5,204 nt of DNA from a virus. Its lineage: Duplodnaviria; Heunggongvirae; Uroviricota; Caudoviricetes. Each line of letters begins with the position of its first letter. Position 1 is the stretch's first letter. Of the stretch, positions 1,720-5,204 are shown one piece after another. The notes beneath the pieces are model-generated. The model was not told where the DNA came from. It searched no databases and saw only the letters and a list, made by a program, of their open reading frames with translations. Made by a program: the position numbers and the translations under genes. The DNA lies in IMG/VR virus record IMGVR_UViG_2541047428_000017; one strand, written 5' to 3'.

Positions 1720-2005
1720 CACCACACTTATCTGCCCTGACTCTCTTTTGCGGGCTTTTTATTACAGGAAAGACACCGGACAGTGAAATGTTAAATGCCT
1801 CACAATTCAGGCAGTTGACTGTTGCCTGACATGCTGAGCGTTTGTTAAAAAAATCCTGCATGATGAATCCCCCTGAGCGGCGGGGCATAATGACAGATGT
1901 TTGGTTGCGTATTGTATAGGCAAGTTGCGGATTCTGTCTGGTCATTGCAGAATTCACCGGGAGGCACCCGGCATCATGCTGTATACAGAGATTAGGCATA
2001 TATCC

Positions 2006-2031
2006 AGGCTTCTCATCGCAGGAGCCTTTTT
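2006..2031 (+). terminator. candidate intrinsic terminator (+ strand)
   Basis: 7-bp stem AGGCTTC/GGAGCCT (2006-2012 with 2021-2027, one G-U pair), 8-nt loop, then T5 (2027-2031). Confidence 0.35.
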
Positions 2032-2037
2032 ACATGC

Positions 2038-2063
2038 AAAAAAAAGCCCGAGTGGGTTCGGGC
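2038..2063 (-). terminator. candidate intrinsic terminator (- strand)
   Basis: GCCCGA/TCGGGC stem (2046-2051 with 2058-2063), 6-nt loop, flanked on the + strand by A8 (2038-2045), which is a U8 tract after the hairpin on the - strand. Confidence 0.45.
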
Positions 2064-2123
2064 AACAGCATGAGATACTTGCATTGTCATTTTTATCGTG
2101 TGGATTTTAACCAGGGTTTATAA

Positions 2124-2242: not shown

Positions 2243-4180
2243 ATGACATTTAAACATTATGATGTTGTCAGGGCGGCGTCGCCGTCAGACCTTGCGGAAA
2301 AGCTGACACACAAACTGAAAGAGGGCTGGCAGCCGTTTGGTAGTCCTGTGGCCATAACCCCTTATACCCTGATGCAGGCGATTGCCGCGGAGGGGGATGT
2401 GACCACGCCAGTGGTTGTGCCCGGCACGGGGGATGGTGGCTATCCGGGAGTGGTCACCACGGAGCCAGATTATTACTACGTTATTCCACTGGCCGGGCAG
2501 TCGAACGGCATGGCTTACGGTGAGGGGCTTCCTCTGCCGCAGACATATGACCGTCCTGACCCGCGTATAAAGCAACTGGCTCGTCGCAGCACAGTGACGC
2601 CGGATGGCGCTCCCTGTAAATATAACGACATTATTCCGGCAGACCACTGTCTGCATGATGTACAGGACATGAGCCGTCTTAACCATCCGAAAGCTGACCT
2701 GTCGAAAGGTCAGTACGGAACCGTGGGGCAGGGGCTGCATATTGCCAAAAAGCTGCTGCCGTTTATACCGGCGAATGCGGGTATTCTTCTGGTTCCGTGC
2801 TGCCGTGGTGGTTCAGCTTTCACCACCGGGGCAGATGGAACATACAGTGACGTGACCGGTGCCTCAGAGAGTTCTACCCGCTGGGGTGTGGGCAGGCCGC
2901 TGTATAAGGATCTCATCGGTCGTACAAAAGCCGCGCTGGCAAAGAACCCGAAAAATGTGCTGCTTGCCGTGGTGTGGATGCAGGGGGAATTTGACTTTGA
3001 CGGAACGCCAGCAAATCACACAGCCCGTTTTACAGAAGTAGTGGAACAATATCGTACGGACCTTGCAGATATGGTGGGACAGTGCGCTGGTGGTTCTGCT
3101 GACGGTGTTCCCTGGATATGTGGAGACACAACTTATTTCTGGAAGCAGAAGAGCGAATCCACTTACCAGACGGTGTACGGCAGTTACAAAAACAAAACGG
3201 AAAAGAATATTCACTTTGTGCCGTTCATGACCGATGAGAACGGAGCAAATGTCCCGACGAACAAACCGGAAGAAGACCCGGATATTCCGGCATCAGGATA
3301 TTACGGTGCGGCCTCCCGGACGTCGGCAAACTGGACGTCAGCAGACCGTGCGAGCCATTTCAGCTCATGGGCACGCAGGGGGATTATTTCTGACCGTCTT
3401 GCCTCAGCGATTCTTCTCCATGCAGGACGGACGGCTGAACTGGTGGGTGGGGAACAGGTTGTGATGCCGCCGGATGAGAAGCCGTCACCGGACACACCAT
3501 CAACACCGTCAACGGACGGGAAATCAGTGACAACGCTGCTTTATTACCGTGCAACAGAGTCAGGTGGTTTACTGAATCCGCAGGGATGGGGAGCTGAAGG
3601 AGGGCGTGCATTGGTAGTTGATGATGCAGGTGCTGCAGGAGGTAAGGCGCTGAGGTGGACCAAACAGACAGGAAGTTCCTCGTGGTTTATGCAGCATGAT
3701 GCCGGTAATGGCGCAGACCTGCTGGAGAAGGGCGGGCTTATCAGTTGTCGTTTTAAAGTTGATGGCACACTGACAGCTAATCAGTACGCACTGGCGCTGT
3801 ACTGGCCGGTTTCTTCACTGCCTCAGGGTGTCACACTGGAAGGTAATGCCGGTCATAACCTGCTGGCGTCGTTTTACGTACAGAGCGATGCCACAGACCT
3901 TAATGTGATGTACCACAAGGGAAATGCTGGTCAGAACACGAAGCTGGGGTCATTCGGCGCATTTGATAACGAATGGCATACGCTGGGCTTCCGTTTTGCC
4001 GGTAACAACAGTATTGAGGTGACGCCGGTCATTGATGGTAAGGACGGGACGCCGTTCATGCTGTCACAGTCACCGGTCGGCACGTTTACGGCAGACAAAT
4101 TGCGCGTGACCGATATCACTAGCGGTGCGACATATCCGGTGCTGATTGAAAGTATAACAGTGGAAGTGAATAACCCGTAA
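2243..4180 (+). CDS. nanS-p: prophage NanS-p-type sialate O-acetylesterase (645 aa): N-terminal DUF1737-like region, SGNH/SASA esterase domain, Pro/Ser/Thr linker, C-terminal beta-rich domain
   Basis: ATG at 2243 with GGGAGG SD 4-9 nt upstream (the listed TTG at 2186 is less likely). GQSN catalytic-serine motif of the sialate O-acetylesterase family at nt 2495-2506 (Ser87). PST-rich linker PPDEKPSPDTPSTPSTDG at about nt 3466-3520. Length and position (after phage tRNAs, before the lysis genes) match the gene found downstream of stx in Stx phages. Confidence 0.88.
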   Translation: MTFKHYDVVRAASPSDLAEKLTHKLKEGWQPFGSPVAITPYTLMQAIAAEGDVTTPVVVPGTGDGGYPGVVTTEPDYYYVIPLAGQSNGMAYGEGLPLPQTYDRPDPRIKQLARRSTVTPDGAPCKYNDIIPADHCLHDVQDMSRLNHPKADLSKGQYGTVGQGLHIAKKLLPFIPANAGILLVPCCRGGSAFTTGADGTYSDVTGASESSTRWGVGRPLYKDLIGRTKAALAKNPKNVLLAVVWMQGEFDFDGTPANHTARFTEVVEQYRTDLADMVGQCAGGSADGVPWICGDTTYFWKQKSESTYQTVYGSYKNKTEKNIHFVPFMTDENGANVPTNKPEEDPDIPASGYYGAASRTSANWTSADRASHFSSWARRGIISDRLASAILLHAGRTAELVGGEQVVMPPDEKPSPDTPSTPSTDGKSVTTLLYYRATESGGLLNPQGWGAEGGRALVVDDAGAAGGKALRWTKQTGSSSWFMQHDAGNGADLLEKGGLISCRFKVDGTLTANQYALALYWPVSSLPQGVTLEGNAGHNLLASFYVQSDATDLNVMYHKGNAGQNTKLGSFGAFDNEWHTLGFRFAGNNSIEVTPVIDGKDGTPFMLSQSPVGTFTADKLRVTDITSGATYPVLIESITVEVNNP

Positions 4181-4233: not shown

Positions 4234-4327
4234 AAATGTCGTTATATCCAAAGCAAAACATGCAGGACACTTTTTTAACCAACAGGTATTAACGATGTCA
4301 ACACCATATCAATAACCGGGAGGGATA

Positions 4328-4510
4328 ATGAGATTTGTACAGCTTATTTTATTGTATTTCTGCACGGTGGTGTGCACGTTATATCTGGTAAGTGGCGGGT
4401 ATAAGGTTATCCGGAACTATATACGCAAAAAGATTGATGCCGCGGCGGCGGAAAAAATCAGCGCCAGCCAGTCAGCCGGAACAAAACCCGAAGAGCCTCT
4501 CATTTCGTAG
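4328..4510 (+). CDS. hypothetical small protein (60 aa) with a hydrophobic N-terminal segment, possible single-pass membrane protein
   Basis: ATG at 4328 with GGGAGGG SD (4318-4324); N-terminal stretch LILLYFCTVVCTLYLV followed by a charged, Ala-rich tail; sits between the esterase and the holin. Confidence 0.45.
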   Translation: MRFVQLILLYFCTVVCTLYLVSGGYKVIRNYIRKKIDAAAAEKISASQSAGTKPEEPLIS

Positions 4511-4547
4511 CAACTTTCTTAACAACACCTTTCAACGAGAAAATCCC

Positions 4548-4817
4548 ATGTCAGAAATAAAATCTCTGGTCACTGCTGAAGCAGTGAAGGACGTCCTGCG
4601 CTCTGAAGAAGTCAGAAGCGCACTGAAACAGCAACTCCGCCAGAATCTTGAGGCGCGTCTTGATGCTGAAGTGGATGCCATTCTGGATGAGCTGCTGGGG
4701 GGACCGGCTGCTCCTGAGCCTGAAGACGGCGCGGGTGACAGTGCTGTTTCAGATGGCGTTGTGTCTCAGCCTGACGGTAGCAGTGAGCCTCAGCCTGGCG
4801 GCGAAATGATGATGTAA
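4548..4817 (+). CDS. hypothetical acidic small protein (89 aa)
   Basis: ATG at 4548 with only a weak GAGA SD. The frame is also open from GTG 4392 and ATG 4437, but those starts lack an SD and overlap the previous ORF. Acidic, Pro/Gly-rich C-terminus ending EMMM. Confidence 0.4.
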   Translation: MSEIKSLVTAEAVKDVLRSEEVRSALKQQLRQNLEARLDAEVDAILDELLGGPAAPEPEDGAGDSAVSDGVVSQPDGSSEPQPGGEMMM

Positions 4818-4892
4818 CCATACGCAGGGGCTGTCGGTGTGAGCTGATGCCCCTCCTGTTGTTGTGAGCTTCCGGATTGCGGGAGACGGGGT

Positions 4893-5108
4893 ATGTACCA
4901 GATGGAAAAAATCACAACGGGTGTGTCATACACCACGTCAGCGGTGGGGACGGGATACTGGTTACTGCAGCTGCTGGACAAAGTCTCTCCGTCCCAGTGG
5001 GTGGCGATAGGTGTGCTGGGGAGTCTGCTGTTTGGCCTGCTGACGTATCTGACTAACCTGTATTTCAAAATCAGAGAGGACCGTCGTAAGGCGGCGCGGG
5101 GAGAGTAA
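4893..5108 (+). CDS. S: S21-type class II holin (pinholin), 71 aa
   Basis: GGGAGA SD 7-12 nt upstream of ATG 4893. Two predicted transmembrane segments ([16 protein letters not shown] and [23 protein letters not shown]) and charged tail [13 protein letters not shown], close to phage 21 S as I remember it. Met1 and Met4 (MYQM) form a possible dual start. Confidence 0.85.
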
Positions 5109-5112
5109 AGCG

Positions 5113-5204
5113 ATGAAGAAAAAATACGAACTGGTTGTTAAAGGGATAAATAATTACCCGGATAAGATTACTGTTACTGTGGCACTGGAAATTGGTGGGT
5201 ATCC
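5113..5204 (+). CDS. 5' end of a downstream gene (first 30 codons; truncated by window end), product unknown
   Basis: ATG at 5113 with GGAGAG SD at -13 to -8, starting 4 nt after the holin stop. N-terminus MKKKYELVVKGINNYPDKITVTVALEIGGY is hydrophilic, not a Gly/Ala-rich SAR segment. Confidence 0.5.
   Translation, partial: MKKKYELVVKGINNYPDKITVTVALEIGGY

Follow-up and report, generated by a model that had tools for sequence, protein, structure and literature searches.

The 5,204-nucleotide stretch analyzed here (IMG/VR virus record IMGVR_UViG_2541047428_000017; the whole stretch is referred to as the window hereafter) very probably ends in a conventional lambdoid lysis cassette composed of a pinholin, a signal-anchor-release (SAR) endolysin and spanins, in which an accessory gene, ydfR, sits right after the holin gene as a moron. 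Judging from its gene content, the window stems from the late part of a lambdoid prophage, with the order DNA methyltransferase, two tRNAs, two small RNAs (sRNAs), NanS-p-type esterase, DUF1378, DUF826, holin and a gene clipped by the window end. Its last 905 bases (4300–5204) occur unchanged (100% identity) in many chromosomes of E. coli O157:H7, and the closest match to the whole window is the prophage of strain PV15-279 (99.9% identity; 4 substitutions and 2 single-base indels). Everything 3′ of the window was read from other genomes that are identical over these 905 bases, with another O157 prophage (L001) as the reference locus. There, an R21-like lysozyme gene and Rz/Rz1 follow ydfR, and the cassette is therefore taken to be a normal pinholin/SAR-type endolysin/spanin set with inserted genes. 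The features at the end of the window are as follows.

4893..5108, plus strand: S, encoding a 71-amino-acid class II (phage 21 S-type) pinholin (ATG at 4893, TAA at 5106–5108; assigned by PF04971, PHROG and hydrophobicity)
4902..4904, plus strand: second in-frame Met codon (M4) of S, at the position of the S21 dual-start motif (from the sequence and the comparison with EssD and EssQ)
5098..5103, plus strand: GGGGAG, a Shine-Dalgarno-like element inside the 3′ end of S, 9 bases 5′ of the ydfR ATG
5113..5204, plus strand: ydfR (DUF1327 family), first 30 codons and 2 bases, clipped by the window end

The pinholin that the first-pass annotation had placed at 4893–5108 was confirmed. The S product matches PF04971 (Bacteriophage P21 holin S) with an E-value of 1e-32 (112.3 bits against a cut-off of 26; profile positions 1–63 of 64), it also matches the PHROG holin families phrog_9876 and phrog_20, and it shares 79% identity with both EssD and EssQ of K-12. 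Its first transmembrane domain (TMD1; approximately residues 7–27) is weakly hydrophobic, with a summed insertion energy of +6.0 (EssD, +6.5), and its TMD2 (residues 36–54) is strongly hydrophobic, with a sum of −0.5 (EssD, +0.2). TMD2 carries GVLGSLLFG, which conforms to the GxxxSxxxG motif important in S21 and is conserved in comparison with EssD and EssQ. The N-terminus is different: it reads MYQMEK against MKSMDK in EssD and EssQ, so that Tyr-Gln and no basic residue stand between M1 and M4. In S21, the extra positive charge (Lys2) gives the longer product its antiholin character; because MYQMEK replaces MKSMDK, the longer product of the present S would have no added positive charge. The MYQMEK allele is found both with and without ydfR, the holin allele of locus L017 begins with MDQMEK, and the RefSeq start of the holin of phage POCJ13 is placed at the second Met.

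The open reading frame (ORF) that starts with the ATG at 5113, 4 bases after the S stop codon, stays open to the window end, and its translation, MKKKYELVVKGINNYPDKITVTVALEIGGY, is hydrophilic. Since 30 stop-free codons are expected by chance at (61/64)^30, approximately 0.24, the ORF by itself is not significant; it is regarded as a real gene because the identical O157:H7 loci carry an annotated 114-amino-acid "YdfR family protein" there. The full ydfR is 345 bp long (L001:6814–7158 in RefSeq), residues 1–30 of its product being equal to the window translation. The full-length protein in these loci matches PF07041 (DUF1327) with an E-value of 1.7e-46 (156.8 bits; cut-off, 25) and phrog_406 with an E-value of 1.2e-64. 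No lysozyme domain was found in all 114 residues by the Pfam search, and neither a membrane-grade segment nor an N-terminal signal-like segment is present, the best 19-residue window reaching a Kyte-Doolittle (KD) value of 1.18 and an insertion sum of +10.0. Thus, the earlier statement that the product of the gene at 5113 begins with a hydrophilic stretch and does not resemble a SAR endolysin is upheld by the complete protein, which is not a lysozyme with a signal anchor. YdfR is, by these sequence measures, a soluble cytoplasmic protein, and K-12 YdfR is listed as cytoplasmic (PMC13232886). An antiholin or membrane lysis regulator of the S21-71, T4 RI or P1 LydB type was considered for YdfR and rejected, as it has no transmembrane segment or signal sequence.

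The AlphaFold2 (AF2) model of YdfR, based on a 30-sequence alignment, predicts two unequal parts: residues 1–73 form a confident beta-beta-beta-alpha domain, in which the predicted local distance difference test (pLDDT) values of 10-residue blocks are 72–91, and residues 74–114 have pLDDT values below 50, the tail being predicted as disordered. For the N-terminal domain, the assignment as a double-stranded RNA-binding domain, taken as an alpha-beta-beta-beta-alpha fold together with significant structural or sequence similarity, was rejected. Searching the PDB by sequence gave chance matches only (E > 1), Foldseek returned nothing from the PDB and BFVD at E ≤ 0.001, and NCBIfam and PADLOC had no match to YdfR. 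The pairwise ratio of nonsynonymous to synonymous substitution rates (dN/dS) was 0.23–0.25 for the N-terminal domain of ydfR, 0.10 for the holin and 0.08 for the lysozyme; ydfR is therefore under purifying selection as a real protein, although more laxly than the lysis genes.

In L001, the genes after ydfR are, in this order, a 177-amino-acid lysozyme gene (50 bp on), the P22-type antirepressor gene ant, an ORF for a hydrophobic 48-residue protein, and Rz with an embedded Rz1. The cassette accordingly comprises PF04971, PF07041, PF00959, PF10547, PF03245 and PF06085, and the RefSeq labels in the identical O157:H7 loci read class II holin, YdfR family protein, lysozyme, antirepressor, hypothetical and lysis protein. 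The lysozyme matches PF00959 with an E-value of 1.5e-24, is 90% identical to RrrQ, and aligns through residues 9–174 with full-length R21 (3hde) and K-12 RrrD (4zpu), the N-terminal segments included. Its triad E35/D44/T50 (Glu-8 residues-Asp-5 residues-Thr) is aligned to the E/D/T of the R21-type RrrD. The N-terminus, MNAKIRYGLSAAVLALIGAGASAP, is weakly hydrophobic and Gly/Ala-rich: within MNAKIRYGLSAAVLALIGAGASAPEIL, two basic residues (K4 and R6) precede residues 8–24 (GLSAAVLALIGAGASAP), which consist of Gly, Ala, Ser and Thr to 65% and are aligned to the SAR segment of R21 in 3hde. A Pro placed after Ala-Ser-Ala blocks signal peptidase I; as a Pro follows the Ala-Ser-Ala of this segment, it would be left uncleaved. 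Rz and Rz1 make up a two-component spanin: Rz (L001:8736–9203) matches PF03245 with an E-value of 1.5e-39, and the Rz1 ORF (L001:8956–9162), embedded in the +1 frame of Rz, contains ...LVVSAC... and a Pro-rich part and matches PF06085 with an E-value of 5.6e-21. The 48-residue protein (L001:8582–8728; phrog_4906), encoded between the antirepressor gene and Rz, has a single strongly hydrophobic helix with an insertion sum of −3.8; it is thus a small membrane protein encoded within the cassette, and it might be more relevant to lysis than YdfR is.

Of the two arrangements that the first-pass annotation had considered for this region, an additional small gene separating holin from endolysin, of the kind seen in E. 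coli cryptic prophages, is therefore the one that is present: it is ydfR, and the same order occurs in the Qin prophage of K-12. The other, a different endolysin arrangement, does not agree with the PF00959 lysozyme and Rz/Rz1 that come next; the SAR endolysin and spanin genes, which were to be looked for further downstream, were both found there, the former as a predicted SAR-type lysozyme. The premise that pinholins work together with SAR endolysins also agrees with what is published on Shiga toxin (Stx) phages, approximately 99% of which have predicted SAR endolysins paired with pinholins (PMC8136144).

The slot occupied by ydfR was clarified by an alignment of the O157 type, POCJ13 and K-12 Qin. 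POCJ13 has no ydfR, and its lysozyme ATG is found 4 bases past the holin stop codon, behind the GGGGAG at the 3′ end of S; in Qin and the window type, exactly this slot is taken by ydfR. The GGGGAG element, which thus precedes the endolysin start in ydfR-less phages, probably acts as a ribosome-binding site. The displaced lysozymes of the O157 type and Qin share another start region, ATAAATATC(C/T)ATGAAC. In the O157 type, a 50-bp spacer (L001:7159–7208) separates ydfR from the lysozyme gene, whose start has no obvious Shine-Dalgarno sequence (…CCTGATAAATATCCATG), whereas in Qin the ydfR stop codon overlaps the rrrQ start codon (ATGA; L003:6055–6058), suggesting a translational coupling of the lysozyme to ydfR. 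From these two start regions, it follows that ydfR may alter endolysin expression whatever its protein does. Candidate sites for a promoter or terminator of ydfR's own between S and R were at the level of shuffled sequences, not above chance. The phage-21-like cassette of DLP12 (essD-rrrD-rzpD/rzoD) has no gene between S and R, and since the ydfR-less cassettes of POCJ13 and DLP12 are complete, ydfR is argued not to be a core lysis gene.

What was established here concerns family memberships, motifs, gene order and the hydrophobicity pattern; the dynamic steps of lysis are modeled on the work on phage 21, whose cassette is the experimental paradigm for a pinholin combined with a SAR endolysin. 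By analogy, one late transcript would carry S, ydfR, R, ant, the ORF of 48 codons and Rz/Rz1. S would build up in the inner membrane, where the weakly hydrophobic TMD1 would exit the bilayer and TMD2 oligomers would form small pores, collapsing the membrane potential. Pores of S21-type pinholins are approximately 2 nm wide; they depolarize the membrane, and the endolysin cannot pass through them. The endolysin would instead be exported by Sec, tethered by its N-terminus, freed by the depolarization and refolded to an active muramidase that cuts the peptidoglycan, and the Rz/Rz1 spanin would disrupt the outer membrane last. YdfR would be the product of a moron co-transcribed with the late operon, outside the core lysis machinery.

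Several observations weigh against this reading of the cassette. The SAR character of the 177-residue lysozyme is a prediction from its sequence, and although the marginal insertion-energy sum of its N-terminal segment (+2.7) lies close to that of RrrD (+0.1) and far from that of a true transmembrane helix of the same locus (−3.8), the segment is less hydrophobic than its counterpart in RrrD. In PV15-279, although this genome is the closest to the whole window, the lysozyme gene is split by IS1203 (L002:10508–12354), and because of this interruption that prophage copy is probably lysis-defective. Finally, ydfR begins exactly 4 bases after the holin stop codon in every E. coli context examined; this fixed spacing could still stem from a role in lysis, as opposed to a convenient site of insertion.

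The arrangement of holin, ydfR and endolysin is already known and annotated, as in the K-12 Qin prophage, where it appears as essQ-ydfR-rrrQ-rzpQ/rzoQ (b1556–b1553). Qin has the same order and families as the O157 type, the holin and lysozyme being 79% and 90% identical, respectively, with ydfR again 4 bases past the holin stop codon. The differences are that its YdfR has 103 residues, with a tail that differs after residue 72 and an N-terminal domain identical at 34 of the 72 positions (47%), that ydfR and rrrQ overlap in place of the 50-bp spacer, and that neither an antirepressor gene nor the ORF of 48 codons lies between R and Rz. Moreover, the Qin prophage is cryptic, in contrast to the window type, which is found in inducible Stx phages as well. 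With phage 21 and DLP12, the cassette shares the Pfam family of S (79% identity to EssD) and its TMD2 motif, the endolysin fold family with the same triad and the Gly/Ala-rich N-terminal segment, and Rz with an embedded Rz1. It differs from them in that the gap between S and R is empty in DLP12, in that the endolysin has 177 residues as compared with 165 (38% identity), and in the N-terminus of the holin. Among the Stx phages, the 933W-like ones and POCJ13 have cassettes without ydfR, and H-19B, BP-4795 and Stx1a/Stx2c phages have cassettes with it. The neighborhood of a nanS-p-type esterase, DUF1378, DUF826, S, (ydfR), R, ant and Rz is common to them and the window; the window, however, contains no stx genes, and the interval that holds stxAB in Stx phages is occupied by the two tRNAs, STnc100 and AgvB. 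Two papers on Stx phages, PMC8136144 among them, make no mention of ydfR.

As for the cassette itself, little is at stake, because it is a standard system and the gene already carries the label YdfR family (DUF1327), both in K-12 and across thousands of genomes. The remaining interest lies in ydfR, which is present in more than half of the complete E. coli genomes and in toxin-converting phages, is under purifying selection without an established function, and would be co-transcribed with genes that time lysis and the release of Shiga toxin. Of 5426 complete E. coli genomes, 2924 contain DNA resembling ydfR, a single genome having as many as 8 copies, and YdfR was detected in 101 phage records by tblastn. 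The proteins of BP-4795 (ORF47) and of an 18-kb H-19B record are 99.1% identical to that of the window type. The same order of S, ydfR and R is seen in BP-4795 (S, ORF47, R, ant, Rz), mEp460, Evi, PhiR42_1 and the long-allele loci. Nevertheless, the DUF1327 family is very small: a word-indexed search gave 282 matches, the named ones being nearly all from Escherichia and Shigella, and 92 clusters were recovered at E ≤ 0.001 when 1.84 billion representative proteins were searched with a profile.

The alleles of ydfR are modular. A conserved N-terminal region of approximately 72–75 residues is accompanied by a conserved middle part (EKRPVILEAQ...GKLPG.ITGSLKTPP), and some alleles carry a coiled-coil-like extension of 60–70 residues, while the remotest members of DUF1327 are stand-alone proteins of 72–76 residues, consisting of the N-terminal domain alone. 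The genes for the remote members are mostly located outside lysis cassettes: between tail genes M and L (L006), after tail gene I (L007), in the gap between a tail chaperone gene and a tape measure gene (L010 and L011), and in the gap between a gene pair for a GH19 endolysin and an Rz-like protein and the terminase gene (L012–L014). A small convergent gene was found approximately 10–50 bp after the remote DUF1327 genes in 7 of 8 distinct contexts. Four of these convergent partners are mutually homologous (phrog_10490), and the others belong to phrog_25324 or phrog_18578. In Evi, S and R flank the pair itself, which consists of a minimal 72-residue DUF1327 gene and a convergent phrog_25324 gene. 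The long E. coli allele of ydfR, which encodes 176 residues, is followed by a convergent gene for an 86-residue phrog_2572 protein; kinship of the latter with the phrog_10490 partners was rejected (hhalign probability, 0.3%). PADLOC had no match for the partner genes, and Pfam had none for either gene of the pair except DUF1327 itself. The pairs of a DUF1327 gene and a convergent gene are located at the following positions.

L006:511–966
L007:1636–2160
L008:446–992
L009:93–616
L010:4001–4519
L012:705–1232
L015:503–1328
L020:2501–3040
L017:3001–3739

From its gene contexts, the DUF1327 pair looks like a two-gene moron, with one constant half and one variable half drawn from at least 4 unrelated families. 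Likewise, on the evidence of gene order, DUF1327 behaves in a moron-like manner, as a mobile unit found at several positions of late operons and fixed at the S/R junction in the lambdoid phages of E. coli. The window type can be placed in this scheme by aligning its cassette with that of the long allele: approximately 457 bp are deleted, and the flanks align at about 90% identity or better. The deletion took the tail extension of ydfR and the whole convergent phrog_2572 gene, and the final two codons of the window-type ydfR derive from the deletion junction. Because of this loss, the 114-residue allele is interpreted as a deletion derivative of a two-gene insert. This origin and the variable convergent partners of DUF1327 are what is new here, and it is a modest addition.

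A clue to the function of YdfR comes from K-12. K-12 YdfR was recovered in a two-hybrid screen, and residues 1–72 are sufficient for the interaction (PMC13232886, 2026); the full-length protein bound Rne 1–597 in the two-hybrid assay, and Strep-YdfR co-purified Rne 1–598 together with DNase-resistant nucleic acid (PMC13232886). The N-terminal domain of the O157 protein spans the region that is sufficient in K-12. It is thus possible, and tentatively our preferred reading of its activity, that YdfR is a late-expressed factor that contacts the catalytic half of RNase E, RNA or both through its N-terminal domain and so adjusts RNA turnover during late lytic growth. T4 Srd and T7 gp0.7 are phage modulators of RNase E or the degradosome, and, if the K-12 result holds, YdfR would resemble such modulators as a small phage protein acting on RNase E and possibly RNA. 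Another of them, Dip of phiKZ, targets RNase E by binding the RNA-binding segments of the scaffold region (PMC4980113); YdfR has no sequence or fold kinship with these proteins and is reported to act on the N-terminal half. Other points tell against an RNase E role: the contact was described in a single study with an overproduced, tagged K-12 protein, the overproduction barely shifted the transcriptome (few transcripts) and did not slow growth, no effect on RNase E activity was shown, and the authors could not exclude a contaminant behind the RNA retention (PMC13232886). Should the contact prove genuine, ydfR would represent a prophage factor that is widespread and influences the turnover of host RNA, and the pairing of DUF1327 with variable partners would then merit a systematic look. 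A wider proposal, which we consider distinctly unlikely, is that the DUF1327 domain of approximately 72 residues is a late module binding the catalytic half of RNase E and RNA, and that it travels as the fixed component of a two-gene moron, independent of position, with convergent partners drawn interchangeably from at least 4 unrelated families. If it were true, Stx and other lambdoid prophages in about half of E. coli genomes would have, within the lysis cassette, an unrecognized modulator of host RNA decay that might be linked to a cargo gene active in lysogens.

The placement of ydfR next to S allows for other explanations. YdfR may be a lysis regulator, acting from the cytoplasm to tune the triggering of the pinholin or the production of the endolysin, and kept beside S for this reason. 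The constant position ahead of R, 4 bases after the holin stop codon in all E. coli and coliphage contexts examined, agrees with such a role, as do the changed translation of R upon ydfR insertion (no obvious Shine-Dalgarno sequence in the O157 type; ATGA coupling in Qin) and a genetic screen tying ydfR to envelope integrity, cited in PMC13232886. Since the MYQMEK allele has no Lys2, another input to lysis timing is also conceivable. These points have to be set against the lack of any transmembrane or signal segment in YdfR, the location of remote DUF1327 members among tail genes or beside the terminase gene, far from holins, the functioning of the same S/R types without ydfR in isolated phages (POCJ13; the MYQMEK allele also occurs without ydfR), and the normal growth on K-12 YdfR overproduction. 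On balance, a lysis regulator is quite improbable. Much less room is left for a non-SAR endolysin arrangement, or for the ORF at 5113 being itself an unusual endolysin. This idea arose since, within the window, no endolysin-like N-terminus follows the holin; it is barely credible now that the complete protein has been assigned to DUF1327 with no lysozyme domain, that an R21-like lysozyme with the E35/D44/T50 triad and the Gly/Ala-rich N-terminus begins 50 bp on in the identical loci, and that nearly all Stx phages (~99%) combine a predicted SAR endolysin with a pinholin (PMC8136144).

Two further explanations concern the history of the insert. DUF1327 may act with its convergent partner, for example, as a late regulator or antidote of a cargo expressed in the lysogen, the ydfR of the window being a leftover after the loss of the partner; this is compatible with the RNase E lead. 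The small convergent gene in 7 of 8 remote contexts, with four homologous partners, the pair between S and R in Evi, and the phrog_2572 gene after the long E. coli allele, lost from the window type by the 457-bp deletion, all fit this idea. The partners, however, come from at least 4 unrelated families, phrog_2572 and phrog_10490 included, so that a specific protein-protein partnership is hard to picture, and no PADLOC defense model matches either gene. In addition, the partner-less 114-residue allele is maintained intact (97–100% identity) across numerous O157 prophages and inducible Stx phages; together with the purifying selection on the N-terminal domain, this argues that YdfR has a function of its own, and we regard the partner explanation as unlikely. 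That ydfR is a decaying, functionless remnant is very improbable, even though the window allele is a deletion derivative with its last two codons taken from the junction, its C-terminal 40 residues are predicted to be disordered, and many truncated or fused variants are found in databases. The dN/dS of 0.23–0.25 for the N-terminal domain speaks against decay, as do 36 invariant columns across alleles that are just 60–96% identical, the intact gene in the virion-isolated or inducible phages BP-4795, H-19B, mEp460 and Evi, and the stability and solubility of K-12 YdfR when expressed (PMC13232886). The reading of ydfR as a moron within an otherwise conventional cassette is thus retained.

The other features of the window, which lie upstream of the lysis genes, are as follows.

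389–1446: DNA methyltransferase gene, broken at approximately 1070 into the ORFs 389–1111 and 1090–1446
1487–1562: tRNA-Met (CAT) by ARAGORN, 3′ of the methyltransferase gene
1643–1719: tRNA-Arg (TCT) by ARAGORN, 3′ of the methyltransferase gene
1829–2037, plus strand: sRNA STnc100 (Rfam; 175 bits, above the gathering threshold)
2039–2098, minus strand: sRNA AgvB, prophage anti-GcvB (Rfam; 56.6 bits, threshold 56)
2243–4180: NanS-p-type esterase of 645 amino acids, domains DUF1737, SASA and DUF6645
4328–4510: DUF1378 gene
4548–4817: DUF826 gene

The methyltransferase gene is broken because an A-run has lost one base (GGAAAAG to GGAAAG) by comparison with the intact 1059-bp gene of PV15-279; the split reflects a pseudogene created by frameshift or, alternatively, an error in sequencing the homopolymer. 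RefSeq labels the first tRNA as tRNA-Ile at the near-identical locus; if so, its CAT anticodon would have to be lysidine-modified. The esterase, DUF1378 and DUF826 genes form the usual block 5′ of S in Stx-type prophages. In L001, in which the region from S to ydfR is identical to that of the window, the esterase gene is truncated and fused beside a truncated rusA.

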